64,000 nucleotides of DNA from Bryobacteraceae bacterium (GCA_035502635.1 DATJUG010000064.1:29783-93782), one strand, 5' to 3'. Positions 1 through 14,954 are shown, counted from the stretch's first letter. Notes: generated by a model from the sequence alone, not told the origin. Made by a program: numbers and translations.

Positions 1-234
1 ATCGAGCTTTCGCCGCAGCTCGATTCGGAGAAACAAATTACCGCCTACTTACTCAGCTTGCGTAACATTGCGCTGTCATTCCTTGGCAAAAAGTTACCTA
101 CTTCCGGCGTGACTGATCTTGCGCTCTTTAGCGATTTCCGTAAAGAAGGTGGCGGCAGTTCGCTCAGTTGGTACGCCGCCTACTACACAGAACCTCCTGC
201 CGCACGGCTGCCGGACACTGAGGTTACAGGATAA
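1..234 (+). CDS. 3' end of an unidentified protein-coding gene (N-terminus lies left of the window)
   Basis: Frame 1 is open from base 1 to TAA at 232-234 (...SLSWYAAYYTEPPAARLPDTEVTG*). The stop lies only 2 nt before the GTG start of the giant ORF, suggesting one operon. No family recognised. Confidence 0.5.
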   Translation: MELSPQLDSEKQITAYLLSLRNIALSFLGKKLPTSGVTDLALFSDFRKEGGGSSLSWYAAYYTEPPAARLPDTEVTG

Positions 235-236
235 CT

Positions 237-3200
237 GTGGATCTCGACTACATCGCCCAGCAGTTGAACAACAACATCGACCCGGCCTCGCGAAGGCTCT
301 CGCTTCCCATCTCCGTCGATTTAGGCGCGCCCATCAAGCAACTATTCGAGCAGTTTCTGCTCGGCGGCCCGCTCATCCTGAACGAAGCGCTCGTCACCAT
401 GCAGCAGGGGCAGAATCGTGTCTTGCTGACCGGAACCGGCGCCTCATTCCCGTTCGACACCCTTACTATCCGAGCCTATTTCAGCGTCGCCCCGGCTGGC
501 GATGCCGCGGTGCTGGATCTCATAGGCAATGCAGGCAAGCTCTGGAATTTCGCGGTTGCGTTCCCGGCCTTGGCGCCCACCTTCATGCCGACGCTCTCGT
601 TCGCAAGCGCCGCATTCACCCTCCGTTCGATGGAAGAGCCGGATAAGCCCGCTGGCTTGTCTTTCGCCGGCATTTTGAAACTGGATGGCGCATTATCTTT
701 TCTCCAGCCACTGCTCAATGAAACTCAGCTCGATGTCTCCTCGCCCATCACTCTCGAAGCGAACCTCCCCAAAATCAGGCTGACTGAGAATTACTTCCTG
801 GTTACTCCGGGCATCGGAACCTTCGCTCCGTTTCATGTACGGCTCGTCGCCGCCACGGACCCCACCCCGGATGGCGATATCATTCCTACCTTCGGGATTC
901 AAGGCGTGCTCACTTTTGGCGACGCCCGCGAGCTGAGCATCGGCTACGACTTACTCACAATTATTCCCGGCTATTACCACTTCGTCGCCGATTTTCGCGA
1001 AGCCGATCTTACTTTCGGAAATCTGGCGTCGCTGTTGAACGGATCGGATCCAGCACCCGTTTTGCCCGCTGTCTTCTCCGTCCTGAATAACTTCGAATTC
1101 AAGACCTGGGAGATCTATATTGCGGCATCCGGCTTCAGCGTGGCCAATGTCGTCATTTCCGTCGGTACGAAGCAGCCCTGGGAGCTGCTGCCCAACCATC
1201 TCCTGGATCTGAACCTCGATTATCTGACGCTCAACGTGCAGAACACCGGCAAGCTAGCCGTGTACTGCGACGTGCAGGCCACCTTCACGCTCAAGCAGCA
1301 GGAAGTACCGGCTGTAATCATGCTGCGAGCCAGTTACCCCGGCTTTAAGTTCTCCGGCAAGCTGGTCAGCGGCTACCTCGATATTCCCTATCTAATCGGC
1401 CGCTATATCAGCGAAGCCGCCGCTGAGTTAGTTCCTACTTCGCTCCGCGTCGACGGCTTATATCTTGCTATCGACCCGCCCACATCGTCTTACGCATTTA
1501 GCATCGACACTAAAGCCGAATGGGTGATCAAAATCGCCGACGCCAGCTTCACCGTTCTGGAGATTTCGTTCGACATCAGCCGTGTCGCACAGGCAACCAG
1601 CGGCCGTTTCAAAGGCGCCTTCCGTCTCGGCGCCATTGAGCCGCCCATTCTGGTGGATGTTGCTGCGGGCTACACGACGGCGGGCGGCTGGACCTTTGAA
1701 GGCGGTCTCACCGAAGGCAGTAAGGTCACTTTCAACGACATTCTCAACAGTTACTTCCCCGACTGGAACCTCGAGAGCATGATCGTTACACTCGAGGCCT
1801 TCCGCGTCGAGTATTCCGCGAAAACAGGCGCCTATCGGTTCCAGATCAAGGTCCTGTGGGTCCTCGAATTCCTCGGCTGGACGGCCACTCTGCATGGCGA
1901 GTGCGATATCGCCTACACCGAACAGAAAACGTATAAGGGATTCATTCGCGGCACACTGGACATCGAAGGATTTCTGCTTTCGGCCGAAGTTACTTACCCG
2001 GATAAGACCGTCACCTTGAAATTGGGTGACCTGAAGGTCGAATTTAAAGGCGACCCGGTAGTAATCACCATCTCCTTCCCCAGCATCACGCTTGGCGAAA
2101 TTATCACCACCTTAGTAACTGCCGCCATCGGCGAAAACATTACCCTCCCCGCGCCTTGGAATGTCCTGAACCTGATTAGTCTCAAAGATCTTGTGCTCAG
2201 GATTACCCCCAGCAAGCAAATCTTCGAGGCGGAATACTCGCCGAATCTCAACCTCGGCTTCGTCTCCATCGAGAAATTCGTCCTGCGCTACACCGGCGGC
2301 CAAAACTCCGCCAGCAGCAAGGTCGAGTTCGCAATCACCGCCGGCTCTTTCCTCGGCCAACCCATCGACCCCGCCGACCCGGTCAAGATGAACGTGCTCG
2401 AGCCGGCCTCTGCGCCCAAGGTGCCTGGCGCCGGCGACACAGTTTTCACGTTGCATTTCCTCGCCATCGGCCAACGCGTCGCCCTCAAAGATCCGGTCAA
2501 TGCGAAGACCGTGACCCAAGCCATGGAGATCGTTGAAAAAGCCTTCTACAAACAGCAAGACGAGGAGGGCTCGCCCGTCGCCGGCACCGGCCTCGTTCCC
2601 AGTGAGCGCAGCTCCTGGATCTTCGCCATCCGCGCCGAAATTCTCAGTTCCATCACCATCCGCGCTCTGTTCTTCGATCCCGATCTCTACGGCCTCGGCA
2701 TCAACGTCGGCGGCACGAAGTTCCCCAGCTTCACTGGCCTCAACTTCGAGATCCTCTACAAGAAGATCAACGAGAACGTCGGAGTCTACCAGATCGAGCT
2801 GAAACTCCCAGACGTGATGCGGCAGCTCGAATTCGGAAGCGTGTCCATCACGCTGCCGATCATTGCGCTCGAGATCTACACCAACGGCGATTTCCTCATC
2901 GACTTCGGCTTCCCGGCTAACGGCGATTTCACGCGCTCCTTCGCGATTCAGGTGCTGCCGTTCACCGGCGCAGGCGGCTTCTATTTCGGAGTGCTCAGCA
3001 ACGCCACCGCCAAGCGCCTCCCGCCCGGGCCGCTCTGCGGCAGCTTCAGCCCGGTTATCGAAGCCGGCGTCGGCCTGCGCATCGGCTTGGGGAAAGACAT
3101 CAATAAGGGCGTTTTGAAGGCTGGCCTCAGCCTCACCGTGCAGGGCATCATCGAAGGAACGCTGGCCTTCTATAACGACAACCTGAAACGCCCTGAATAC

Positions 3201-6200
3201 GCCGCCGCCGTCTTCTATTACATCTCCGGACAAGTCTCGATCGTCGGCCAAATCTATGGCGAGATCGATTTCGCAATCATCTCCGCGCGCCTCGACGTGC
3301 TCATCCGCATCGGCGTCACGTTCGCGATGCAGGCGCTCGACCCCATCGTGCTCGGCTTCTTCGCCGAAATCACCGTCAGCGTGTCGGTCAAGATCAATCT
3401 TGGGATCTTCAAGATCACCATCTCGCTATCCTTCTCGGCCACCTTCCGCGAATCGTTCACCATCGGCAGTGTTTCGCCCAAGCCTTGGTACATCTGCCCC
3501 GGCTCCACGCAACCACGGGCCATCCGTGCGCGCCGCACCGCGCTCGATGTCTTCGATCCCGGCTGCGACGACGTTGAGCTCGTTTTCCATCCTGTCACCA
3601 GAACAACGCCGCAGGATGTGCAGGTTCTCTTCGTTCCGCAGTTCACCCCGGCGTCGGATGTCAATGGCGGCGTTCAACCGTCCAAAGCCCGCTGCGTGGC
3701 CGCCTTCAACGTCGAGACTTCGACCGGTAAGTCATCTGCCGTCGAGACCGCTTTCGACCGGCTCGCGCGCGGAGTTTTCCTGTGGACACTCGCCGCTTAT
3801 CTGTTCCCGGAACCAAAGAGCACGCCGGAAGAAGATGTGCTCTCGCAAGAGATCACGCTCACGCAACTCGAGAAGCTCTATTGCGCTCTCACCCGTACCT
3901 CCGCAAGCCTGCTCTTCGATGAAACCCAGCTCACCGGCTTCTTCGCCGCCTATTTCAAGTTCATCGTCAGCCTGGCCGAGGAGCAAGCGGACGCCCGCAT
4001 CACCACCATCTTCCCGGCTCTCACGCCATTCATCCTCGTGCCGCCCACCCTGCCGGAAATTCCGTTCGCTTCCTGGCGAATGGTCTCGAGCCAATACCTG
4101 GCCGCCATCAAGAAATACTTCGAGCCCATGCAGGTGGATTACCTCTCGCCCAAAGAGAAGGCCGCGAAAGCCGCGCGCGCCGCCGCAGCGCCGGCTGACC
4201 CCGGCGACAAGTCGCTTGCCTGCTGGATGATGCTCGATTACTTCACTCTCCTTGTGAAAGACACCACGCAAGCCGCCATCGACACCATGACCGCCATGAC
4301 CACTACGGTCGGCGAAGGCGCCACCCTCGGGTCCATCCTGGCGCGCTATCCGGGTTCGGGCGCAACGGTCGAAGAGCTGGTCTGGGCAAATGCCACCACG
4401 CCGCTTTCTCTCAACGCCGGAGTTCGGCTGGGCGCACCCATGGGTGCTGAATACCGCGTCGACGCGAACGGCCCGAACACGCTATTCGGAATCGCGCGTC
4501 ATCACCATATCCGGCTGAACGAATTGGCGCGCACGAATCAGGACGTTCCCGGTCTCTTCCCGGCCGGCCGCCGCATCTGGTTTCCACTCATCGATTCCAT
4601 CAAAGTTTCAGACCTGCTCGCCGCCATGCAAGACCAAAGCGCGTTCCAGCACCTGGCTGGAAGCGCCTCGCGCGTGCTGCTCTCCGGGTTGCGTCCCCCT
4701 GCTCCCAACGACGGCCCGCTCACACCGCTGTATGAGCTGAATGGCCAGCAGTTTGATGCATCCACGCTCCAGGTTGGCAGCTCCTTCAGCCTGAAGATCA
4801 ATGCCGATCTGAAGTGGCTCGTCTTTGCTAAGCCCTCCTCGGACCCGCTCAGTCTCCCCGTCGTCATCAGTGCCGACGAAGCCAACGTTATTGCGGCATT
4901 CAACACCGCCAAGCTCGATCCGCAGATTCAATTGCTCCAGCCGTTGGATCTCTACAAAGTGGAACCGAAGTCATTCGGAGTCGGCAACGCGACTCTCTGG
5001 CAACTGGCCGAGGACCCGGTCAACCGCTCGATCTGGATGCTCCCCCAGAATCTGCAAACCATGCTCTTCGACAATCCCGATGCACGACCCCAAGTTGAGC
5101 TTTGGGAATCCATCCAGAAGAACCCCAACCAGGCTCCGCAACCAATCAAAGTTCCCTCCGCCGACTACACCTGGACATCGCGCATCAATGTCGTGGTGCG
5201 CAGAATTCGCACCCGTACTGGCGACCTGGTGCCCAACACCTATGAAATGCGCGGTGCCGGTGTCGCATTTAGCACGGTGCTGCAAAACTTGCTCACTTAC
5301 GCCACGCCAGATCCGGTAACCGATCTCCATATCCTTTATCTGCCCGACCCGCTCGGCGATTTCCAGGGCTTGCTCTCGCCCGCCGCAACAGCAACCCAAA
5401 TCTTCCTTCTGCAGACGAATCTCTCGACCGAAGCCAACCCGGAACTGTCCTTTGCGAGCGCGGCAGCCGTCACGAACACGTCGTATATCACCGGCATGAC
5501 CGCTCTGGACGTCCTCAAATATGTCTGGGAGGGGAGCGTCGTGCGCTCGGGCGGCTACTATCTCTACTACAAGCAAGTCCCCAGCGGCGAGGGCCTGCCC
5601 GAATACTTATTCAACGACACCGAAGAGACCACCCTCACTCTGCTCGTCACCTTGAATCCTGCCGCGCCCGGATTGTGGCCGTACATGAACAGCCTCCTTA
5701 TGACGCGCGAAGTGGATATTCAGAACACCGCGTTCTATCTGAAGGCGATCGGTCCGGAGTTAGTCGAACGCGTTCCAACCATAGGCCCAGGTTTGAACGG
5801 TTTCAACGTTCAGCGCACCACGCCCGTAACTCCGGACCTCAACGGCGCCGTTACTGCCCAGGTCGCTACGCCATTTGTAAGCGAACTCTATAATCTCCTT
5901 AATTTCCGCATTGCAGACTTTGGCGGATTCGATAGCAGCCCGTTCGCCATGCCGGCCACTCCCGCCGATGTCACCGATCCCGATCCGGATCCCAACGCCA
6001 ATCGCACTCCGCGCCTCGAAACGGACCATTGGAATTATCAGTCCGTCGCGCCCATTTACCGTTTCTCGAAAGTAATTCCGCCGCCACCGTCGGATTTACC
6101 CGCTCCGCTGCCGTCCCCGGAAAAGAATCCCTATCGCGGAATCGGCTCCGATGTACGCTTCGAGATTTCCTGGCTCGATCTGTTCGGCAACCGCATCGAG

Positions 6201-9056
6201 ACCCAGAACACCGGGCTGCAGCCCTCGCTCGATATCCCGGTCAGATACTCCGACAATCTGATTCCGGTGGACAAGTGGCCGGCTGTTTCTACCGATTTCC
6301 TCGTGAAAAAAGGCGCTTCGGCTGCGCAGCTCGATGTTACCTTGCGCTTCGACGCCTGCCGTTATCTCCCACCCTCCAGCGGCGGAACAAACGAGGACTA
6401 CAAGAGCATCGCCCTCGCCGACCGCCCGACTTATGAACTGATTTATTATCAACTTACTCAAACCGGCGTCTCTGCCACTATTTCCTCCACCTTCGATTCT
6501 GCCCAGACGCCGTGCATCAAGCCGCTGGTCGAATGTGCCGTATCCATCTATCAGTTCTTGAATGCCATTGTCGAGAATTCATCCTGGACAATTCCAGCCG
6601 ATAAAGGGATTTCTTTCACGGCAAAAGATACTAATCCTCTGCAGTATTATCAGTTGCTGGTTTCTATTTCCATTGAGCGTCCGGCTGCCCAAATACACGC
6701 CCAATTAAAGGACCCGCCGTTTGATCCCGTGCGCCGCGTCAGCAGCTTCGTTCCGGCCCAGTATACGGAAACACCCACGGATGATCCGAAGGAAAAGCCG
6801 CTTACTTTGCGCGCTTTCGTGGAACAACTGGAGCTCGCCTTCCCGAACTTGGCTGTGGCGACCGCCAAACCGCGCGCCTCCGCGAATGCCGAAAACACCC
6901 TGAAAGAGATTTGGATGGTGCGCTTCGGCGGCACAAACGGCATCGTCTACGATGTCAAACAGCCCGCCTTTTACTTCGCGCCCCTGCCGCTCTCGCGCAC
7001 TCTCCAGTCCACCGAAGTTTCCCTCTATTCGTACAGCAGCGGAAAACCCATCGATCAGGGCACGCTGCAGTCCTATTCGTTCTCGGGCGTCGATATGGAC
7101 CTGCTCGCGAAAACGTTCCTGGAAACCGTCGACCTGGTTCTTTCTCCCCAATTTGTAGTGCCCGCGTGGCTGGCGGTGAATGAAGAGGAACCGAATGCGT
7201 CGGGCCCGAACGCGATTGAACGAATACTCAGCTACAAGAAGGATCTCGCGGGCGCCATCGCTGGAGGGATCGCGCCCGTGCTGGTCGAAGAGCAAAGCAC
7301 GGGAAAAAATCTCGAAGCCGCAACCGCGAAACTACGCCAGCAGCTCCTGATCCGGCTCTCCGACCTGTATTCGGTGCATTGCATCGTGCAGTTCAACGTC
7401 TCCATCGACTCCAGCTTCACTGATGAAGCAACTGCACCGCGCCTGTTCGGCCATCCGGGACCGAAGCAGGCCATCCCGGCGCCCGGCGCGCAAACTCAGG
7501 ACTATTCATTCTCCACGGCGGAAATATCGCTATGCAACAAGCCCGGCGCTTCGCTGCTGACATTCCTGTTTGGCACGCGCGATCCTTCGGCCGCCAAGAA
7601 CGTCACGCTGGAGATGGACTATCAGCGCTCCAACCTGCAGCACGGATTCTCTACCATTCCCGGCATTCCGGACTACGAAGCTTCTTCGTGGCTCGCCTTC
7701 TATCAATTGGAGCAAGCCGAACCCGCGGGGGCGTCACAGAGCGGCCGCACCGATCTCGGCCTCGTCACGGTGCCCGTCCCGCTGCGCGCTTATCCGCCGC
7801 CGCCTGTGCTTCTGGAGCAAAGAGGATTGCCGCAGGAAGCGGTCGCGCTGCACGCGTCCGGCAATCCCGTGCTCGAACTTACGAAACGCTGGGTTTTTGA
7901 ATTTAATTGGACTTACGACCTCGCCGAGCAAGACACCCTCTATAGCGATGTTCAGTTCAACGTGCCTGGCGGAAAAGCAGCCTTCCTCAAAGCCGTACCA
8001 ACCTTGGATCTGCTTGGCGCGCTTCTGCAGTTCTCAACCGTGTATGCTGATGTCCTCCGCGACCTGGAAGATTCGTTGATCGCGACACCCAATTCGGAGC
8101 TTGCGACCGTAACCCTGAATTCTTTAGCCTGGCTAGTCCAGTTAGTCTCCGCGGCGTCGTCCGCATGGCCCCAGGCAAAGACCGCGCTGTTTGTGTTGCC
8201 CGAAGTGCTGACCGCGAACTTGCGGGTCACGCAAGCGCCCGCTACGGTGTCGGGTGTTGATTACCCGGTATTTTCCGTTACCGTGGAGTGCGAAACCGAT
8301 GGCCGCCTCTTGGAACCTACCGTAAGCCTGCCCGGTTTCAAGGCCGTACCTTTGCCCAAGCTTGCTGCCAGTAACACGACTAAGACCTATGCGTATCTGG
8401 ACGCGCAGGCTGAATACTTGCCTTACAGCGCAGGCGCCGCGATTCACACCCGTGGAATTCGTTTCCAGAACATGAATATCCTCGACGAGCAAACCGGTTG
8501 GGCCGGTCTTCACATCCGCCGCAACGAAGTCCTGGTCGAAGGCTATGAAACTAACCCAAAGTTCGTCTATGAGACGCCCGACCTACGCTTCGCCTCGGTG
8601 CTGACCCCGCTCCTGAATCCGGATGTGCCCATTAACATCGCCGATTCCAGCGCCTCGAAACCGGCATCGGACAAACTCTACCATTATCTGTTTAACTTCC
8701 TTTCGGATTTCTTCGGCAGTGCGCCTGACGCTGGCGGCACAATCAAACTGGGCGGAAGTTTTGTCTATGATTTGAACGCCGGGACGGGCCCGGTGCCTCT
8801 GCCCGTTTCCTTGCCCGTCTGGATGACTCTTCCAACTCAAGTCACTACCGGCACAGCCATGCCCCCGGAAGTCACCATTCAGGAATTCTCCCGTTCGCTT
8901 GCCGATTTTATTGTCCCGTGGTTTGCGGACCGGGGCCTTACAGGCCGCATCGGCCAGCTTGCTGTCCAGCTATCTCTTTATTCCGCTCTCGCCGGTAGTA
9001 ACCTGCCAGTCCTCGAATTACAACAATTATATTTAGAAACGGAGTTGATATGGTAA
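237..9056 (+). CDS. Giant hypothetical protein (2,939 aa), function unknown
   Basis: Uninterrupted 8.8-kb ORF, which is very unlikely by chance. GTG start 2 nt after the upstream stop, and its stop is embedded in the start region of the next gene. No N-terminal signal peptide, no Walker A, no HExxH, no YD/RHS, Ig or other repeat family visible by eye. The N-terminal third looks beta-rich and the protein contains Pro-rich linkers. Confidence 0.9.
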   Translation: MDLDYIAQQLNNNIDPASRRLSLPISVDLGAPIKQLFEQFLLGGPLILNEALVTMQQGQNRVLLTGTGASFPFDTLTIRAYFSVAPAGDAAVLDLIGNAGKLWNFAVAFPALAPTFMPTLSFASAAFTLRSMEEPDKPAGLSFAGILKLDGALSFLQPLLNETQLDVSSPITLEANLPKIRLTENYFLVTPGIGTFAPFHVRLVAATDPTPDGDIIPTFGIQGVLTFGDARELSIGYDLLTIIPGYYHFVADFREADLTFGNLASLLNGSDPAPVLPAVFSVLNNFEFKTWEIYIAASGFSVANVVISVGTKQPWELLPNHLLDLNLDYLTLNVQNTGKLAVYCDVQATFTLKQQEVPAVIMLRASYPGFKFSGKLVSGYLDIPYLIGRYISEAAAELVPTSLRVDGLYLAIDPPTSSYAFSIDTKAEWVIKIADASFTVLEISFDISRVAQATSGRFKGAFRLGAIEPPILVDVAAGYTTAGGWTFEGGLTEGSKVTFNDILNSYFPDWNLESMIVTLEAFRVEYSAKTGAYRFQIKVLWVLEFLGWTATLHGECDIAYTEQKTYKGFIRGTLDIEGFLLSAEVTYPDKTVTLKLGDLKVEFKGDPVVITISFPSITLGEIITTLVTAAIGENITLPAPWNVLNLISLKDLVLRITPSKQIFEAEYSPNLNLGFVSIEKFVLRYTGGQNSASSKVEFAITAGSFLGQPIDPADPVKMNVLEPASAPKVPGAGDTVFTLHFLAIGQRVALKDPVNAKTVTQAMEIVEKAFYKQQDEEGSPVAGTGLVPSERSSWIFAIRAEILSSITIRALFFDPDLYGLGINVGGTKFPSFTGLNFEILYKKINENVGVYQIELKLPDVMRQLEFGSVSITLPIIALEIYTNGDFLIDFGFPANGDFTRSFAIQVLPFTGAGGFYFGVLSNATAKRLPPGPLCGSFSPVIEAGVGLRIGLGKDINKGVLKAGLSLTVQGIIEGTLAFYNDNLKRPEYAAAVFYYISGQVSIVGQIYGEIDFAIISARLDVLIRIGVTFAMQALDPIVLGFFAEITVSVSVKINLGIFKITISLSFSATFRESFTIGSVSPKPWYICPGSTQPRAIRARRTALDVFDPGCDDVELVFHPVTRTTPQDVQVLFVPQFTPASDVNGGVQPSKARCVAAFNVETSTGKSSAVETAFDRLARGVFLWTLAAYLFPEPKSTPEEDVLSQEITLTQLEKLYCALTRTSASLLFDETQLTGFFAAYFKFIVSLAEEQADARITTIFPALTPFILVPPTLPEIPFASWRMVSSQYLAAIKKYFEPMQVDYLSPKEKAAKAARAAAAPADPGDKSLACWMMLDYFTLLVKDTTQAAIDTMTAMTTTVGEGATLGSILARYPGSGATVEELVWANATTPLSLNAGVRLGAPMGAEYRVDANGPNTLFGIARHHHIRLNELARTNQDVPGLFPAGRRIWFPLIDSIKVSDLLAAMQDQSAFQHLAGSASRVLLSGLRPPAPNDGPLTPLYELNGQQFDASTLQVGSSFSLKINADLKWLVFAKPSSDPLSLPVVISADEANVIAAFNTAKLDPQIQLLQPLDLYKVEPKSFGVGNATLWQLAEDPVNRSIWMLPQNLQTMLFDNPDARPQVELWESIQKNPNQAPQPIKVPSADYTWTSRINVVVRRIRTRTGDLVPNTYEMRGAGVAFSTVLQNLLTYATPDPVTDLHILYLPDPLGDFQGLLSPAATATQIFLLQTNLSTEANPELSFASAAAVTNTSYITGMTALDVLKYVWEGSVVRSGGYYLYYKQVPSGEGLPEYLFNDTEETTLTLLVTLNPAAPGLWPYMNSLLMTREVDIQNTAFYLKAIGPELVERVPTIGPGLNGFNVQRTTPVTPDLNGAVTAQVATPFVSELYNLLNFRIADFGGFDSSPFAMPATPADVTDPDPDPNANRTPRLETDHWNYQSVAPIYRFSKVIPPPPSDLPAPLPSPEKNPYRGIGSDVRFEISWLDLFGNRIETQNTGLQPSLDIPVRYSDNLIPVDKWPAVSTDFLVKKGASAAQLDVTLRFDACRYLPPSSGGTNEDYKSIALADRPTYELIYYQLTQTGVSATISSTFDSAQTPCIKPLVECAVSIYQFLNAIVENSSWTIPADKGISFTAKDTNPLQYYQLLVSISIERPAAQIHAQLKDPPFDPVRRVSSFVPAQYTETPTDDPKEKPLTLRAFVEQLELAFPNLAVATAKPRASANAENTLKEIWMVRFGGTNGIVYDVKQPAFYFAPLPLSRTLQSTEVSLYSYSSGKPIDQGTLQSYSFSGVDMDLLAKTFLETVDLVLSPQFVVPAWLAVNEEEPNASGPNAIERILSYKKDLAGAIAGGIAPVLVEEQSTGKNLEAATAKLRQQLLIRLSDLYSVHCIVQFNVSIDSSFTDEATAPRLFGHPGPKQAIPAPGAQTQDYSFSTAEISLCNKPGASLLTFLFGTRDPSAAKNVTLEMDYQRSNLQHGFSTIPGIPDYEASSWLAFYQLEQAEPAGASQSGRTDLGLVTVPVPLRAYPPPPVLLEQRGLPQEAVALHASGNPVLELTKRWVFEFNWTYDLAEQDTLYSDVQFNVPGGKAAFLKAVPTLDLLGALLQFSTVYADVLRDLEDSLIATPNSELATVTLNSLAWLVQLVSAASSAWPQAKTALFVLPEVLTANLRVTQAPATVSGVDYPVFSVTVECETDGRLLEPTVSLPGFKAVPLPKLAASNTTKTYAYLDAQAEYLPYSAGAAIHTRGIRFQNMNILDEQTGWAGLHIRRNEVLVEGYETNPKFVYETPDLRFASVLTPLLNPDVPINIADSSASKPASDKLYHYLFNFLSDFFGSAPDAGGTIKLGGSFVYDLNAGTGPVPLPVSLPVWMTLPTQVTTGTAMPPEVTIQEFSRSLADFIVPWFADRGLTGRIGQLAVQLSLYSALAGSNLPVLELQQLYLETELIW

Positions 9057-9847
9057 CTCGACTCGTCTGGCTGGCCATACTATTCGCCGCCATCCAGCCA
9101 CTCTACGCCCAAATACTTGTCAGCTCCCAGAACACGTTGCATCTCAGCGATAGCACACGAGGAGCAACCAAGCGCAAGACCATCCTGGATCAGAATGACA
9201 ATTACAATGTCAACCTTCTGCAAGAAGTCATGAAAACTGCGGATCTGGATGATGTAACTCCAGGCAAATACTATTGGAAGGAAAGCGATCTAAAGGGCAA
9301 ATCAAGCTACAAAGAAACATACGGGATTATATACAGCGACTATCTGACAGCCAATGGAGAAATCGAGGACTACCCGGACGATAACGACGATTTCGCTAGG
9401 CCGCCCAGCGGTGTGATGCTCAAGATGAAGTCAGGCGACTACGTCTGGTTTATCGACTTTCATGCTATTTGGGGCAAAAGCGCAAGCCTGCGCGAGGACG
9501 AGGCCACAGAAATGGCCGAGGTCTATAAATACTTCAAGAATCTGGAGATCAACAAGATAAAAACCACCAAAATTGTTATCGCGGGCGACTGGAATCTGGA
9601 TGCGGACAATGACGGCTTCGACGCCTTGAAAGAACTGGATAAGGGGATATTAGAGGTAACTCCTAACATGGAGACCAGCCTCACAAGGTCAGGCGATCCT
9701 TCGCAGCCCTATGATCACTTCATCGCGGAAAAAGGCAAGCTGACTGGTTGCGTTCTCACGCCCATACCTGACGATGAAGATTCGGAATGGTGGCGGGACA
9801 ATGTCTCGGATCATCGTGGAATCAAGTGCACTTACACGTATAAGTAG
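9050..9847 (+). CDS. Secreted DNase I-like nuclease (endonuclease/exonuclease/phosphatase, EEP, superfamily)
   Basis: N-terminal Sec signal (MVTRLVWLAILFAAIQPLYA/Q). Blocks align colinearly with bovine DNase I catalytic motifs: NLLQEV (LIQEV), SSYKETY (NSYKERY), DFHA (ALHS), AGDWNLD (MGDFNAD), YDHFI (YDRIV), VSDHRGI (ISDHYPV). GGAG sits 5 nt upstream of the ATG. The ATG overlaps the giant ORF stop (ATGGTAA). Confidence 0.85.
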   Translation: MVTRLVWLAILFAAIQPLYAQILVSSQNTLHLSDSTRGATKRKTILDQNDNYNVNLLQEVMKTADLDDVTPGKYYWKESDLKGKSSYKETYGIIYSDYLTANGEIEDYPDDNDDFARPPSGVMLKMKSGDYVWFIDFHAIWGKSASLREDEATEMAEVYKYFKNLEINKIKTTKIVIAGDWNLDADNDGFDALKELDKGILEVTPNMETSLTRSGDPSQPYDHFIAEKGKLTGCVLTPIPDDEDSEWWRDNVSDHRGIKCTYTYK

Positions 9848-9854
9848 GGTGTTT

Positions 9855-10724
9855 ATGCGCGGACTATACTTAGGCATCTCTTTCTGCCTTGCGCTGCGCG
9901 TTTCAGCCGCGCCACCGGTTGCCACAGGCGTATCGTTCACCGATCGCTTTATAGCAACTCCCAACCGGCATGGCCCCGTGATGGTCTATATTGCCGCTAA
10001 TTCCTTTCTCATGGGCAGCAGTCCAGAGGAATTCGGTTACACGCCATACGAACTGCGTCATCCCGTGCAGCTCTCAGCTTTCTCAATCGGTAAGTACGAA
10101 GTCACAAACGCCGAGTTTTGCCGTTTTCTGAATAACCAAGGGAACCAGATCGACGGCGGAATCCCTTGGATTCTAACCGGTCGATCGCATCGTTGTCGCA
10201 TTCAGCAGCACGGCGCCGTCTTCACGCCGGTCCCCGGTTTTGCGAACCACCCGGTCGTGACCGTATCCTGGCTCGGCGCGCGCGCTTACTGCCGGTGGCT
10301 GTCCCAGCAGACCGGCCGCAATTATCATCTCCCGACCGAAGCCCAGTGGGAATGCGCCGCCCGCGCCGGCGTCCGCACCTTGTGGGATTGGGGGAACGAG
10401 TTCGCGCCGGGCCGCCTCAATTGGCGCGGCTATTCGCTCGATCCGGCAACTACTCCGGTCGGCTCCTTCCCCCCGAACGCGTGGGGAATTTGCGATATGC
10501 TCGGCAACGTTTGGGAGTGGGTGCTGGATGCTTTCGATCCGGAGTTCTATTTATATTCGCCACTGAAAGATCCGGTCTTTTTCAAGGACGAGTGCTTGAC
10601 TCCGGGTATCCGCGGCGGAAGCTTCCGCGATAGCCTCGAATTCTGCCGTCCGGGGTACCGGGTCAACATGTGGTGGTGGGGGGATTATGACAGCATCGGT
10701 TTCCGCGTTGCTTCTCAGGCTTGA
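9855..10724 (+). CDS. Secreted SUMF1/EgtB/PvdO (FGE-sulfatase fold) domain protein
   Basis: Motifs HPVVTVSW, AxAYCxWL, YHLPTEAQWECAARAG, GNVWEWVLD and RGGSF are typical of PF03781-type domains. Start chosen at ATG 9855 (MRGLYLGISFCLALRVSAAPP signal-like N-terminus) rather than 9774, which would overlap the nuclease gene. Only one Cys follows RGGSF (EFCRPGY), so the FGE catalytic Cys pair is absent. Confidence 0.85.
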   Translation: MRGLYLGISFCLALRVSAAPPVATGVSFTDRFIATPNRHGPVMVYIAANSFLMGSSPEEFGYTPYELRHPVQLSAFSIGKYEVTNAEFCRFLNNQGNQIDGGIPWILTGRSHRCRIQQHGAVFTPVPGFANHPVVTVSWLGARAYCRWLSQQTGRNYHLPTEAQWECAARAGVRTLWDWGNEFAPGRLNWRGYSLDPATTPVGSFPPNAWGICDMLGNVWEWVLDAFDPEFYLYSPLKDPVFFKDECLTPGIRGGSFRDSLEFCRPGYRVNMWWWGDYDSIGFRVASQA

Positions 10725-12675
10725 GATTTTGGTTTGCGTCCTCGCTGCCGCGCTTCCCGCCGGGGCCGTTACTCATCTTGTGTATTCCCATTCTGGCCAA
10801 CCCGCCCAGGGGCTGTCCGTCGTCGAACGTGCGCCGGAACAGCGTGCCCGGCGCCTCGTCACCGACGAGCTAGGACAGGTCCCAACTCTCCAGGCGGGCA
10901 GCGAAGTCACCATTCGCGATTCGCGCACACACATCATCTTGATGCGCATCGCTCGCGGCGAATCGATTCCCGATCCCATCAAGGTTCCCGAGCTGATCCG
11001 CCTCTCCGGCACTGTTCAGGCCGATCCCGACGCGCGTACCGGCCTGATTGTCCGATACGGCGTTGGCAAGCGCATCACCGCCATGCAGCGATTGCAACGC
11101 AATTACGACCGGTACTCCACACTGAAAGCTCCCGAGAACACCTTCTTCGGTCTGGACCTGCCAACGGCTCCCGCTCATTGGTTAAACGCCACGGTCGATG
11201 CCGCCGGTCGCTTCACCACCAAATGGTTCCCCGCGGTCGACCATCCCATGATCGTCGCTCACAACGCTGCACGCGCGATCGGCATCAGCGACTTCACCCT
11301 CCCGAAAAGCTTCCGCACCGGCGAAACGTTCACGCTCGATCCGCTGTCCCTCACCCCTACCCGAAGTCTCACCATCCGCTATAACGCTCCGCCGAGTCCG
11401 ATAGCCCTTGATGCCGAGGTTTTTCTCAGGGATGTTCAAGTCGATCCGCAACAGCGGGAGTCCGTGCGCCGCGTCCTCAGTGTCCTCGATGCCATTGACC
11501 CGCGCCTGCTCGTCTTTGCAATCGGTTTACGGCCTTATAACATCGAAACGGGCGAAACGGTTATCTCCGGTCTTCCGCAATTTCGCGAAATGCAGGTAAG
11601 ACTGAAGGGCGCCTTCACTCCCGACACTCTCGATCGCACCGTCCAGTTCCAGGGCAATCAAGCCGATGTAGCCGTCTCCTCCGGCGATCTGTTTCCCCGC
11701 GGAGCCTCTACGCTCCTCAAAGGAGTTGTGGTGCTCGAAGATTCTTACGAGCCGGTCAAGGACGCCAAAGTCGTCTATAGCTGCTATCCGGAAAAGGTGG
11801 AAACCACCACGAATGAAAACGGCGAATTCAGTATTCCGGGTGCCTGCGCCGATCGCGATGTCACTTTCTTCGTTACCGCTTCGGATTCTCTTCAACCGGC
11901 TCGCTTCCCTCCTGTGCAGGTGCGCAAGCGAATTCAACCGAAACGGACCTCGCAGCCACTCGTCATCACGCTCCCGGTTCCGCCGCAGCCGGGCCGCTCG
12001 CCTGCGCCGCACGCGGTCGTCTCCATCGGCCCTCAGGAGCGTTTCCAGGCCGAACACGAGCGGCCGCACCTTCAGGCCCTGGAAGGCTCGCCGTTAGCGG
12101 GACTTTTTCGCGGCTCCGCTGTTCCCCCCGGAGCCTATTTCCTTCAGGACTCCCAATATGACGAGGGACCCATCGTTTACGTCTACGAGGACAACATGGA
12201 GGGCGAAATCCCCGACAACGTTGTCAAGGCCACTTGGGAATACCAGTTCGGTTCCAAGATCAGGCTCACCGTCTCAACGACTGGCACTTGGCATGTGCTT
12301 CTCGCCGTCTCTGCGTTCATGGTCTACACCGACGATGCTGTCGATTTGATCGCAAATCAGGAGAAGGAAGTCACTTTGAAGCCGCTGCACTTTGTCAGGT
12401 TTGGTAGCTGGTTGAGCGTCGTCTCAGCCTACCTTCCCCGGCCCGCTTCTAATATCCCGGTTTATTTTGCCAGTCCCGCCGTGGATCCCGATCCCACTGA
12501 GATTGATACTAATGAACTGGGAGTTGCCAAAATGGGCCTGCTCGATACCGACACCATACACGTATTTGTCAGTGATAAGAGGGCGGGCTATTTCGATTGT
12601 GACGTCAAGCTCGATTTTCGCCTTGATGCCAACGTCTTACTCTTGCCCACACCCAGCACGCCCTGCCCGAAATAG
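10687..12675 (+). CDS. Secreted hypothetical protein (662 aa) with a carboxypeptidase-regulatory-like beta-sandwich segment
   Basis: Hydrophobic N-terminus (LLLRLEILVCVLAAALPAGA). Segment VVLEDSYEPVKDAKVVYSCYPEKVETTTNENGEFSIPG resembles CarboxypepD_reg repeats. No catalytic motif seen. The ATG at 10687 overlaps the previous gene by 38 nt; an alternative TTG at 10729 would remove the overlap. Confidence 0.65.
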   Translation: MTASVSALLLRLEILVCVLAAALPAGAVTHLVYSHSGQPAQGLSVVERAPEQRARRLVTDELGQVPTLQAGSEVTIRDSRTHIILMRIARGESIPDPIKVPELIRLSGTVQADPDARTGLIVRYGVGKRITAMQRLQRNYDRYSTLKAPENTFFGLDLPTAPAHWLNATVDAAGRFTTKWFPAVDHPMIVAHNAARAIGISDFTLPKSFRTGETFTLDPLSLTPTRSLTIRYNAPPSPIALDAEVFLRDVQVDPQQRESVRRVLSVLDAIDPRLLVFAIGLRPYNIETGETVISGLPQFREMQVRLKGAFTPDTLDRTVQFQGNQADVAVSSGDLFPRGASTLLKGVVVLEDSYEPVKDAKVVYSCYPEKVETTTNENGEFSIPGACADRDVTFFVTASDSLQPARFPPVQVRKRIQPKRTSQPLVITLPVPPQPGRSPAPHAVVSIGPQERFQAEHERPHLQALEGSPLAGLFRGSAVPPGAYFLQDSQYDEGPIVYVYEDNMEGEIPDNVVKATWEYQFGSKIRLTVSTTGTWHVLLAVSAFMVYTDDAVDLIANQEKEVTLKPLHFVRFGSWLSVVSAYLPRPASNIPVYFASPAVDPDPTEIDTNELGVAKMGLLDTDTIHVFVSDKRAGYFDCDVKLDFRLDANVLLLPTPSTPCPK

Positions 12676-12773
12676 TCAGACTCTAAAATCGGCGGTCACA
12701 AACGCCAACAAGAAATTTTCACCTCGCTCCGTAGCTGCGCTATCTTGTACAACTGAAAAGGCATAGCCTCGAT

Positions 12774-12813
12774 CTACACTGCCTCTACGTGCCTTCTACG
12801 CGACGCCTGCTAC
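12774..12813 (+). repeat. Short phased CTAC(G)-N-GCCT repeats in the intergenic region upstream of the AAA+ gene
   Basis: CTAC occurs at 12774, 12785, 12796 and 12810 (spacing 11, 11, 14 nt), each preceded or followed by GCCT. A fifth CTAC is at 12837. Possible operator array, function unknown. Confidence 0.3.
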
Positions 12814-12935
12814 GCTCCAATCCGTCTCCGCCCGCGCTACATTTTTGACCGAAAGGGTTTGGAGCTCGAAAGCGCGGAATGCCCCTTCTCTTATGGAGAT
12901 GAACTCCCGCTTGACAAGCCCCAAGAGAGAGGCGG

Positions 12936-13967
12936 ATGCGAACTTATTCCTTATCCGGGCGCTCGAGACGCCCTGTTCTGCCAGAAGACCCAGATGGATT
13001 GGCCGCCAGGCTGAAAGATCTGCTCGTCGGTCAGCCCGAAGCCATCGACACCATCATTCCGTATATCCAGATGCACCAGGCTGGCCTCGCGCCTGAAGGC
13101 CGTCCGGTCGGCGTGGTCTTGTTACTTGGCCCCACCGGCACTGGAAAAACGCGTACCGTGGAAGCGCTCGCTGAAGTCCTGCACGGCAGCAGCAAAAACC
13201 TGCTCAAGGTGGATTGTGGCGAATTTCAGATGGAGCATGAAGTTGCCAAATTGATCGGCGCGCCTCCCGGATATCTGGGCCATCGCGAAACTCAGCCCAT
13301 GTTGACGCAGGCCAAAGTCAACAGCGTCGCCACCGAAAGCAGCGATATCTCGCTCGTCCTTTTCGATGAAATCGAAAAAGCCGCGCCTTCCATGACGCGC
13401 CTGCTGCTGGGCATTCTCGACAAAGCCACCCTGCGCCTCGGCGACAACACAACCGTCAACTTTGAGCGTACGCTGATCTTTCTCACCAGCAACCTGGGCG
13501 CGAAATCCATTCAGCGGCTCAATAAGCCCGATTTCGGCTATGAAGCCATGCTGCCGCCGCCGGCCATGGAAGATATGGTCAAGCTTCAAAGCGTCGGCAT
13601 GTCGGCCGTGCGTCACAAGTTTTCACCGGAATTTGTAAACCGCATCGATTCGGTCATCACCTACAAGCCTCTCGACCGCGATGCTTGCGAGATCATCCTG
13701 GATCAAATCTTCTCCAACTTCTCGCGGCTGATCAATCACCGCCTCGGTCTGCGCGGTTTCCGATTGCAGTGCACCATATCCGGGCGCAACCTGCTCCTCG
13801 ACATGGGCATCAGCGTCGAGTTTGGCGCGCGCGAGCTAAAACGCACGGTTCAGCGTAGTTTCATTCAGCCCGTGGCGGCGCTGGTCGCGCAGGGCCAGAT
13901 CCCGCCCGGCAGTACCGTAATGCTCGACGCCAAGAACGGCGAGTTCAACATCCTTCTGCGGCAATAA
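12936..13967 (+). CDS. Stand-alone single-ring AAA+ ATPase of the ClpA/ClpB D2 type (343 aa)
   Basis: Walker A GPTGTGKT, pore loop GAPPGYLGH, Walker [11 protein letters not shown], sensor-1 LTSNLG, sensor-2 GARELKR, and a D2-small-like C-terminus. Colinear with the D2 module of the bona fide ClpB at 37125-39764. No N-domain, D1 or coiled-coil middle domain. GAGAGAGG Shine-Dalgarno upstream of the ATG. Confidence 0.85.
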   Translation: MRTYSLSGRSRRPVLPEDPDGLAARLKDLLVGQPEAIDTIIPYIQMHQAGLAPEGRPVGVVLLLGPTGTGKTRTVEALAEVLHGSSKNLLKVDCGEFQMEHEVAKLIGAPPGYLGHRETQPMLTQAKVNSVATESSDISLVLFDEIEKAAPSMTRLLLGILDKATLRLGDNTTVNFERTLIFLTSNLGAKSIQRLNKPDFGYEAMLPPPAMEDMVKLQSVGMSAVRHKFSPEFVNRIDSVITYKPLDRDACEIILDQIFSNFSRLINHRLGLRGFRLQCTISGRNLLLDMGISVEFGARELKRTVQRSFIQPVAALVAQGQIPPGSTVMLDAKNGEFNILLRQ

Positions 13968-13970
13968 ACA

Positions 13971-14954
13971 TTACGGCGCCCATTTCGTGGATTCAGTCAT
14001 CGGCGCGGCACCGGCAGTGTTCACCGTCATCGTCACGTCCACCTCCCGGCCCGCGCCATCATATGCAAGGCTTCCCATCTTCAGCTCGTCTGCGCCCAAC
14101 TTGATTTCTCGCCGGCTCGAGCCGTCCGTTATGGTCACCGTCGCCCTCGACGCCGGGCCCATCTGCCGGGCATCGTGGTTCCACGAAATCTTCAATAAGT
14201 GGTCGTTGCTTGTCACCTTGAGATCCAATTGCTTCGAGCCGGTAGCGAGCCAGTCCGGCAAGGCCCCGCTTCCAGCCGCCAGCCAAAGAGCGATCAACAC
14301 GATCAGCAATCCCGCCAGCGCGGACCCGATGTACCAATTTCTCGGCGAACGCGCCCGCGATGCCGGCTCTTCGCCTTGCGGGGTTGCGGTCTCCGCTTCC
14401 ACCTCGGGAAGTGCTCTGAATTCAGCCTCGTTGAAGCGAAACTCACGGACCGATGCGTCCTGCGGTAATTCGCCGTTCTCGGCGATGAAGAATGCGGCCG
14501 TACGCGGCGCGCTCACTTGGATCAGCAGCAGAGCGTACGCCGCGCTCTTGAACTCTGTGGATAGCAGGCTTCGATCGGCCAACGACGGCTTGAGCGGCCC
14601 GGGACGGCAATGGCTGCGAAACATCCCTAATGCCGTCTTGTGCTGCGCCCGTGCCGCCTTCCGGATTTCTTCCCACCGCTTCAAATGATCGGGACCGGGA
14701 ATGTAGATTGCGCCATTCTCTGCGCCGCGCGGCATGATCTCGATAGCGTCTATCCGCAGCGTCGGTACGCGCCCGCCAAGCACGTTGCCGATCAGCACGC
14801 CGCCGATTTCGATGTCCAGTTTCTCTGTCCGGTTGAGCTCTTCAGAGATCTTCGAGACCAGATGCAGCTTCAACTCAATCGCAAACCGGGAGTGTTCCGG
14901 GCTCCATCGAATATAAAACGGCGACTCCTCGGCCGCCCGTGGCTCAGACGCCAT
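13971..14954 (-). CDS. Membrane-anchored protein with degenerate MPN/JAB-like N-terminal domain
   Basis: EIGGVLIG (the Glu-GG motif of MPN domains), then RSHCRPGPLKPSLAD where JAMM enzymes have HxHx7Sx2D, so the first His is replaced by Arg. One TM helix (WYIGSALAGLLIVLIALWLAAG) followed by a ~100-aa C-terminal beta-rich domain. The domain call is tentative. Confidence 0.5.
   Translation of the reverse strand: MASEPRAAEESPFYIRWSPEHSRFAIELKLHLVSKISEELNRTEKLDIEIGGVLIGNVLGGRVPTLRIDAIEIMPRGAENGAIYIPGPDHLKRWEEIRKAARAQHKTALGMFRSHCRPGPLKPSLADRSLLSTEFKSAAYALLLIQVSAPRTAAFFIAENGELPQDASVREFRFNEAEFRALPEVEAETATPQGEEPASRARSPRNWYIGSALAGLLIVLIALWLAAGSGALPDWLATGSKQLDLKVTSNDHLLKISWNHDARQMGPASRATVTITDGSSRREIKLGADELKMGSLAYDGAGREVDVTMTVNTAGAAPMTESTKWAP

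Follow-up and report, generated by a model that had tools for sequence, protein, structure and literature searches.

A giant gene and its partner with an exchangeable hydrolase slot in a Bryobacteraceae genome: a conserved and apparently undescribed kind of bacterial system

Several described bacterial systems combine large proteins with exchangeable effectors or consist of nuclease toxins with dedicated binding proteins. Extracellular contractile injection systems (eCIS), type VI secretion systems (T6SS) and Tc toxins are encoded by multi-gene loci; TcdA/TcdB and the binary AB toxins of the anthrax protective antigen (PA) type use large carriers; cytolethal distending toxin (CDT; CdtA-CdtB-CdtC) is a tripartite nuclease toxin; and polymorphic toxins (Rhs, contact-dependent inhibition (CDI), MafB, LXG) and nuclease bacteriocins (colicin E, S-pyocins) have swappable nucleases at a fixed position. 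Here we describe a locus that recalls each of these in part. It lies in a 64,000-nucleotide stretch of DNA (hereafter the window) from a metagenome-assembled genome (MAG) of a Bryobacteraceae bacterium (Acidobacteriota; GCA_035502635.1, DATJUG010000064.1:29783-93782). In the window, the gene of a 2,939-residue protein (the giant) follows the truncated gene of a second large protein (the partner) and precedes genes for an endonuclease/exonuclease/phosphatase (EEP) enzyme resembling DNase I, a protein with the fold of formylglycine-generating enzyme (FGE) and a 662-residue protein. A gene-neighbourhood comparison of 80 related loci, out of ~510, indicates that the giant and the partner represent a real, conserved and apparently undescribed kind of system, which has an exchangeable enzyme slot beside the giant.

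An earlier annotation made from the sequence alone (the first-pass annotation) had taken the genes at the left end of the window for a candidate undescribed multi-gene system that continues beyond the edge. Our results bear out both points: the core pair is found across phyla and belongs to no database family, and the 77-residue fragment at the edge is the C-terminus of a partner of ~1,120 residues, being a 100% match to residues 1044-1120 of P0035 (HTU46186.1, 1,120 residues). A homologue of the partner adjoins the giant, almost always immediately upstream, in all 79 of the 79 loci with enough upstream DNA, as found by tblastn. Because of this constancy, the partner (~1,120 residues) and the giant are, judged by sequence, the universal two-gene core of a bacterial module. 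The possibility that the two are paralogues was rejected. The partner has no match in Pfam, NCBIfam, PHROGs, PADLOC or the PDB, and a Foldseek search with its model (pLDDT 51) came back empty. No description of the giant/partner module was found in open-access papers and bioRxiv preprints.

The module is widespread, albeit sporadic. A profile of the giant core matched 1,406 clusters at 50% identity among 1.84 billion representatives, with complete genes encoding 3,000-4,400 residues, and a search of 5.8 billion proteins yielded 30 relatives of 2,900-4,300 residues from many phyla, most of them containing LysM. In 185,579 genomes, one per species, 510 giant stretches were confirmed in about ten phyla, with carriers in Bacteroidota, Acidobacteriota, Chloroflexota, Clostridia, Actinomycetota, Myxococcota (Sorangium So ce56), Planctomycetota, Pseudomonadota, Spirochaetota and others, and they come from soil, marine, gut and plasmid-borne genomes. 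There are nine plasmid matches to the giant, including those in Nostoc, Mycetohabitans (pBRH02) and Paenibacillus. On the plasmids of Mycetohabitans rhizoxinica (pBRH02; L090, 389-15968) and Paenibacillus sp. 37 (L091, 9369-23051), the giant is split into two open reading frames (ORFs) of about 1,100-1,500 and about 1,600-2,600 residues. The Mycetohabitans module, whose host is a fungal endosymbiont, adjoins plasmid partition genes, and in Paenibacillus a Nal1-like serine-protease-fold protein is encoded before the partner. A phage origin of the giant was also considered and set aside, with no tblastn match in 50,697 phage records.

As a whole, the giant is matched by no Pfam, NCBIfam, PHROGs or PADLOC model. 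It had been described earlier as having no motif that could be placed, and this statement no longer holds: LysM is found at residues ~1330-1460. Taken as an isolated segment, this part scores 23.6 bits with PF01476 against a cut-off of 20.9, in two stretches, and it consists of two degenerate peptidoglycan-binding motifs. Consistent with this, the full-length family profile of the giant matched the LysM structures 4uz2 and 4b8v in the PDB at E ~1e-7 (1.7e-7), and nothing besides LysM. Apart from LysM, profile searches of the giant and structure searches with its core recovered no described family that would make this a known system. The conservation of the giant peaks at residues 560-1110, with the family-defining motif EIYTNGDFLIDFGFP, and its C-terminus is conserved across phyla as well. 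An AlphaFold2 (AF2) model of the core (551 of 2,939 residues; pLDDT 77.5) is predicted to be all-beta, with six strands of ~20 residues each. A profile of this core tile had no match in the PDB, and Foldseek searches against the PDB and BFVD (viral models) gave TM-scores of at most 0.21 for matches covering most of the query. The weak fold neighbours are LptD (TM 0.18), porins, ushers, and gasdermin and membrane attack complex (MAC) pores, that is, outer-membrane barrels and pore-forming toxins. The lack of a signal peptide in the giant, as first reported, was borne out by sequence analysis, and neither the giant nor the partner has a transmembrane (TM) helix or a signal peptide in any phylum examined.

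The enzyme slot lies between the partner and the giant in the relatives, and directly after the giant in the window's clade. It is always or nearly always present and holds one to four genes, which encode either proteins of unrelated phosphodiesterase/nuclease folds with intact active sites or members of a ~540-residue family. The nuclease of the window had been suspected to be swappable, and the relatives confirm this, since unrelated nuclease and hydrolase folds fill the same slot. EEP enzymes are the commonest occupants; they fall into two ORF clusters that are homologous to each other (hhalign 98%), and their profile matches DNase I at 8e-6. The residues N, E, H, GDxN, D and SDH do not vary among them. 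Three members (in L027, L029 and L085) score above the Pfam cut-off. Other occupants are metallo-beta-lactamase (MBL)-fold proteins with HxHxDH and a ComEC-like FLDVGQGD start, present in 1-3 tandem copies that are 51-75% identical, as well as HNH endonucleases and one phospholipase D (PLD)-family protein. The slot enzymes are encoded as separate genes with no intervening small ORF.

The ~540-residue family, which is unannotated, stands alone, with as many as four copies, or is joined in Clostridia (L020, L047) to the N-terminal end of the giant. Its members (L039, 3150-9473; L020, 7784-9400; L047, 7844-9500) share the motifs IRIxIPNxxNFGHQ and FEGxGTxNLxxNLGKPFI. In a Microscillaceae MAG (L039) there are four tandem copies with 44-74% identity, and the Clostridia with the fused form are from the gut. 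The family matches the arginine rhamnosyltransferase EarP at a non-significant level (E ~1), and a role as a glycosyltransferase-type effector is possible.

In the window, the slot is occupied by the EEP enzyme of 265 residues. Its DNase I-like identity, proposed in the first-pass annotation, draws low scores (PF03372, 21.1 bits, with the cut-off at 24.5; partial MnuA match, 5.7e-11; DNase I in the PDB, E=0.09), yet every catalytic motif is readable, and the set aligned to DNase I is complete (LQEV, FHA, GDWN, YDH and SDH). The gene has a GC content of 0.49, compared with 0.58 in its neighbours, and a third-position GC content (GC3) of 0.61 compared with 0.72. The lower GC that led to its being called foreign is thus real, but a recent import is not the simple explanation, because the orthologues show a milder dip. 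Orthologues are present in L003, L004/5, L088 and L089, and a gene matched in size and position is found in the P0009 locus.

The identification of the next gene product as an FGE-fold protein is well founded, with PF03781 (FGE-sulfatase) matching at 171 bits over the full profile length. In human FGE, a pair of catalytic cysteines is located in the C-terminal GGS..C....C motif. The motif region of the 289-residue protein reads RGGSFRDSLEFCRPGYR and contains one Cys, not the Cys pair of FGE/SUMF1, and the protein scores far below the cut-offs of NCBIfam equivalogs (PvdO, GldK, EgtB and others). Because a single Cys replaces the catalytic pair, the protein probably serves in binding and not in the generation of formylglycine. 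Its gene is syntenic in L003, L004/5, L088, L089 and the P0009 locus; in L073, too, the giant is followed by an FGE gene. The 662-residue protein has a faint Ig-like CarboxypepD_reg domain. Its homologues form only 4 clusters in 5.8 billion proteins, namely the window's own, two on giant-bearing contigs and one whose contig is too short to show whether a giant is present, and it appears to be specific to the giant-bearing system.

All three proteins encoded after the giant carry Sec-type signals, as had been noticed at first reading, and these are kept in the orthologues. The order EEP–FGE–~660-residue protein after the giant is the same in L003, L004/5, L088 and L089, whose giants are 46-94% identical to that of the window. 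In the P0009 locus, where the giant is 29% identical, genes for a 260-residue protein, an FGE protein and a 657-residue protein (faint CarboxypepD_reg), matched by gene size, order and Pfam, stand as a block upstream of the partner. The EEP/FGE/662-residue trio therefore seems to move as a block, and is found in the window's clade and one distant branch.

The operon has the order (collagen–Kelch) – partner – giant – EEP – FGE-fold – 662-residue protein, and the window contains its right-hand part. Tentatively, and with the odds somewhat against it, we propose that the partner and the giant form an apparatus that deploys the slot enzyme as an antagonistic effector. The two proteins would build a large apparatus carrying or deploying the slot enzyme against other cells. 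The LysM repeats would hold it on peptidoglycan, and the long beta-hairpin core of the giant may interact with membranes or serve in translocation. Binding of the target would fall to accessories, namely the collagen–Kelch, FGE-fold (C-type-lectin-like) and Ig-like proteins. In the Bryobacteraceae clade, the DNase I-like enzyme and two putative binding proteins would be exported by Sec as a CDT-like tripartite nuclease toxin, the production of which would be translationally coupled to that of the giant. Overall, such a device would work as binary or large single-chain AB toxins do, with the two giant genes supplying the carrier. A relation of cargo to carrier and an arms race would both agree with the N-terminal fusion, the translational coupling, the swapping of unrelated nuclease folds with intact active sites and the diverged tandem copies. 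A more specific version is also conceivable, albeit doubtful: the partner and the giant may be subunits of an unrecognised, phylum-spanning machine, neither derived from phage tails nor a known secretion system, which would attach to peptidoglycan and carry a modular effector (DNase I-like, MBL, HNH, PLD or glycosyltransferase-like) through the envelope of a target cell.

Several observations speak against an antagonistic apparatus. Neither the two core proteins nor the collagen–Kelch proteins carry a signal peptide or a TM helix in any phylum, and no secretion machinery or lysis cassette is conserved near the giant loci. The genes of the signal-less slot nucleases leave no space next to them for an immunity gene (e.g. 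in L074 and L013), which sets them apart from classical nuclease toxins. The slot enzymes have Sec signals in some lineages (the window and the Bacteroidota MBLs) and lack them in others, and such lineage dependence fits a single delivery route awkwardly. In addition, the partner model, at its pLDDT of 51, is unreliable, and the Foldseek similarities of the giant core amount to no more than a generic resemblance between beta-sheets.

Some of these features would suit an anti-phage or anti-plasmid defence, in which a cytoplasmic giant and partner would serve as sensor or scaffold, LysM would perhaps sense muropeptides set free as a phage breaks through the wall, and the neighbouring nuclease would be activated by the two as the effector. 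Nuclease effectors that are exchangeable and lack immunity genes are typical of defence systems. Here, too, HNH, PLD, MBL and EEP effectors are exchanged without immunity genes, the core proteins are free of signals and TM helices, and the distribution is patchy and suggestive of horizontal gene transfer, including plasmids. We nevertheless regard defence as unlikely. PADLOC-DB v2 has no model that matches the two core proteins or the trio of EEP, FGE-fold and 662-residue proteins; its only matches are to the ATPase and the 327-residue protein discussed below. Furthermore, the Sec signals place the effector of the window's clade and the Bacteroidota MBLs outside the cytoplasm; the LysM, collagen–Kelch and FGE/lectin-like modules are parts of an extracellular type; and the module sits among housekeeping or glycosyltransferase genes, not in defence islands.

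In 16 loci there are genes for signal-less collagen-repeat–Kelch proteins, placed before the partner or after the giant, and glycosyltransferase genes recur beside them. Signal-less proteins with domains that act outside the cell are also known from phage tails and exosporium fibres, and the LysM and collagen–Kelch domains of the signal-less proteins here are of this sort. Instead of an AB-type carrier, the module could accordingly specify a particle, virus-derived, tailocin-like or new, that is assembled in the cytoplasm and released by lysis, with collagen–Kelch fibres that the adjacent glycosyltransferases could glycosylate and with LysM parts that bind the wall. Such a particle is improbable in view of the core proteins, which have no PHROG match, no tblastn match in the phage records and no fold match in BFVD, and of the 80 loci, which share no conserved gene for a capsid, sheath, tube, portal, terminase, holin or endolysin.

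The LysM segment, the ComEC-like MBL and DNase I-like enzymes, the Sec-exported enzyme and binding proteins of the window, and the associated glycosyltransferases and collagen-like surface-type proteins would all be at home in an envelope or matrix apparatus, anchored on peptidoglycan by LysM, that acts on extracellular DNA or phosphodiester polymers in scavenging, biofilm remodelling or DNA uptake. We think this quite unlikely, since the core proteins have no export signal, and ~510 stretches in 185,579 species genomes are too sporadic for basic physiology. The swapping of folds, the tandem diverged copies and the putative non-nuclease ~540-residue occupant suit an effector engaged in an arms race better, that is, the antagonistic apparatus proposed above.

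Further genes recur near the core pair in parts of the distribution. In 21 Bacteroidota loci, two small paralogous proteins (~118 and ~143 residues; hhalign 97%) are encoded before the partner (e.g. L074, 3131-3875; L070, 3890-4659; L068, 3154-3907); the second has a signal peptide, and neither has a Pfam match. A PorP/SprF gene of the type IX secretion system (T9SS) lies just upstream in Tenacibaculum and in one Chitinophaga locus. A conserved third component upstream of the partner was considered and rejected: the small Bacteroidota pair and the ~230-residue and ~450-residue families are mutually unrelated by hhalign. Conflict-type or STAND-like genes (CHAT-TPR, BTAD–AAA_22–TPR and MoxR–VWA–DUF58) were seen near some giants (L003, 28322-28850; L004, 25906-28824; and the P0009 locus), and none of them is conserved across the giant loci.

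The first-pass annotation had also counted a Clp-type ATPase and an MPN-like membrane protein, encoded downstream of the trio, among the members of the system. The ATPase is indeed of the single-ring Clp type, as AAA_2 and ClpB_D2-small cover ClpB residues ~560-851 only. With 343 residues, it scores 210 bits against equivalog cut-offs above 880, and it does not have the two rings and N-domain of class-1 Hsp100 proteins. It matches the PADLOC candidate-defence models PDC-M37B (2e-19) and DolB (6e-12). The description of the 327-residue protein as MPN-like can be kept in part: a PADLOC JAB model does match, but weakly (E=0.0013). The JAB/MPN-like domain is N-terminal, the HxH of JAMM reads SHC, and one TM helix is located near residue 210. 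The ATPase and the 327-residue protein may be a separate small system.

As members of the giant system, these two proteins could not be upheld. In L003, L004/L005, L089 and the P0009 locus both are missing, and because unrelated genes replace them there, we exclude them. Among the relatives, the two occur only in the 94%-identical L088, where the ATPase gene likewise follows the 662-residue gene; by tblastn, the ATPase was found in one other of 87 loci, weakly, and the 327-residue protein in none beyond the window's own contigs. Of the genes whose recurrence with giant homologues was in question, the variable effector-like genes do recur, and FGE-fold proteins are found in the window's clade, the P0009 locus and L073; a Clp-like ATPase does not recur. 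A single system comprising the giant, the nuclease, the FGE-fold protein, the 662-residue protein, the ClpB-D2 ATPase and the MPN-like protein, to which the adjacency of these genes in the window and the gene order in L088 would point, is very improbable in the face of these replacements and of the 260-nt spacer that parts the ATPase gene from the operon. We therefore keep to the core pair with its slot enzyme and accessories.

The phased short repeats ascribed to this spacer reduce to one pair of 11-nt direct repeats (GCCTTCTACGC and GCCTGCTACGC, 14 nt apart) together with a few CTACG words. The spacer also contains a 15-nt inverted repeat (12814-12828 / 12851-12865). The repeats may be a candidate regulator-binding site. 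No terminator-like site was predicted after the 662-residue gene.

The seven genes of the window that concern us here correspond to locus tags VMF91_14055-14085 of the MAG, in the annotation of which the giant, partner, EEP, 662-residue and 327-residue genes are "hypothetical" and the other two have generic family names only. Their coordinates are given in Table 1.

Table 1. Features of the locus, numbered from the first base of the window
Feature	Coordinates	Strand	Basis or remark
Partner C-terminal fragment (last 77 codons)	1..234	+	ORF scan; open from base 1, TAA stop at 234
Giant, 2,939 aa (HTU46187.1)	237..9056	+	ORF scan; GTG start
Most conserved core of the giant, aa 560-1110	1914..3566	+	Conservation; AF2 model
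LysM segment of the giant, aa ~1330-1460	4224..4616	+	PF01476; family profile vs PDB
EEP/DNase I-like enzyme, 265 aa, Sec signal	9050..9847	+	Weak PF03372 match; catalytic motifs
FGE-fold protein, 289 aa, Sec signal	9855..10724	+	PF03781, 171 bits
662-aa protein, Sec signal	10687..12675	+	ORF scan; faint CarboxypepD_reg
Spacer, 260 nt	12676-12935		Between 662-aa gene and AAA+ gene
Single-ring Clp-type AAA+ gene, 343 aa	12936-13967	+	AAA_2 plus ClpB_D2-small
MPN-like 327-aa protein gene	13971-14954	-	Weak PADLOC JAB match

The tight packing reported earlier for these genes was reproduced at every junction. The partner fragment and the giant are 2 nt apart (TAA ending at 234, GTG at 237), the giant and the nuclease overlap by 7 nt (the ATG at 9050 lies inside ATGGTAA and the giant ends at 9056), and the nuclease and the FGE-fold gene are separated by 7 nt (9847/9855), the start at 9855 also being chosen by gene callers in L001 and L088. 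The FGE-fold and 662-residue genes overlap by 38 nt (10687 vs 10724), and their orthologues overlap similarly. The ORF scan likewise reproduced the spacer, the AAA+ gene after it and the 3-nt gap to the convergent 327-residue gene. Further downstream, the housekeeping character of the genes is confirmed, with a TP_methylase (rsmI-like), a ferrochelatase and a pyruvate kinase. On the other side, contigs with the exact EEP protein end inside the giant, and scans of metagenome contigs with a 50-nt DNA pattern and with the P0035 protein gave no match, nor did exact look-ups of the giant, P0035 and P0074 made to extend the contig leftwards. Because a collagen–Kelch gene directly precedes the partner in L088 (94% identical) and in L003, L004/5 and L089 (46-66%), such a gene very probably stands directly before the partner to the left of the window as well.

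If an antagonistic or defensive function proves true, the module would represent a new family of interbacterial or host-directed weapons or immunity devices with a plug-in effector slot, and possibly a delivery principle additional to secretion systems, contractile injection systems and Tc toxins. More than a thousand "hypothetical" giant genes would then gain a function as well. Whatever the mechanism, the strict two-gene core with its exchangeable hydrolase slot is a well-defined target, and cultured carriers exist, among them Chryseobacterium indologenes, Pedobacter steynii, Tenacibaculum discolor, Chitinophaga species and Sorangium So ce56.

The giant, unlike TamB/AsmA proteins with their N-terminal membrane anchor and continuous beta-taco fold, has no TM helix or signal, no AsmA/DUF490 match in Pfam and no TamB/AsmA neighbour in Foldseek (551 of 2,939 residues modelled). 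The collagen–Kelch proteins resemble the collagen-like fibres of Bacillus BclA, phages and giant viruses in having signal-less GXX collagen repeats, a C-terminal globular domain and adjacent glycosyltransferases. In the present loci, however, a Kelch beta-propeller forms the head, and the protein belongs to the giant/partner module as an accessory, with no exosporium or virion genes around it. The module shares with eCIS, T6SS and Tc toxins the multi-gene locus, the very large proteins, the LysM parts, the fibre-like proteins and the swappable effectors. In agreement with the first reading, no sheath, tube (gp19/Hcp), VgrG/gp27-gp5 spike, PAAR, Rhs or Tc signatures were found in the window (Pfam, NCBIfam, PHROGs) or in the 80 related loci, and the same holds for baseplate J/gp25, TcA/TcB/TcC and an AAA+ assembly ATPase. 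The shell and channel domains and the Rhs-YD cocoon that mark Tc and Rhs proteins were not detected by Pfam, NCBIfam, the PDB profile search or Foldseek of the core.

In its logic, the module resembles polymorphic toxin loci, large clostridial and binary AB toxins and, as regards the trio, CDT. As in polymorphic toxins and nuclease bacteriocins, swappable nucleases are found at a fixed position next to large conserved proteins, with a patchy distribution and tandem diverged copies. In contrast to polymorphic toxins, the C-terminus of the giant is conserved and is not a toxin tip, and there is neither an immunity gene nor a cognate secretion system; Rhs/YD, filamentous haemagglutinin, LXG and pyocin domains were not found with Pfam and NCBIfam. 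As in CDT, a DNase I-like EEP enzyme with the full catalytic set and two putative binding proteins, all with Sec signals, are encoded in one tight operon of the window. Its binding partners are FGE/C-type-lectin-like and Ig-containing (the 662-residue protein) instead of ricin-type lectins, and two giant genes are added. Unlike TcdA/TcdB and binary AB toxins of the PA type, the giant is linked neither by sequence nor by fold searches to the TcdA/TcdB delivery domain or PA, the effectors are of nuclease folds, the module needs a partner of ~1,120 residues, and LysM points to the bacterial wall rather than to receptors of animal cells. Like them, it has a very large signal-less carrier with an effector that is either fused to its N-terminus, as in the Clostridia (L020, L047), or separate, and the long beta-hairpins of pore-forming B components appear to have a counterpart in the modelled core of the giant.

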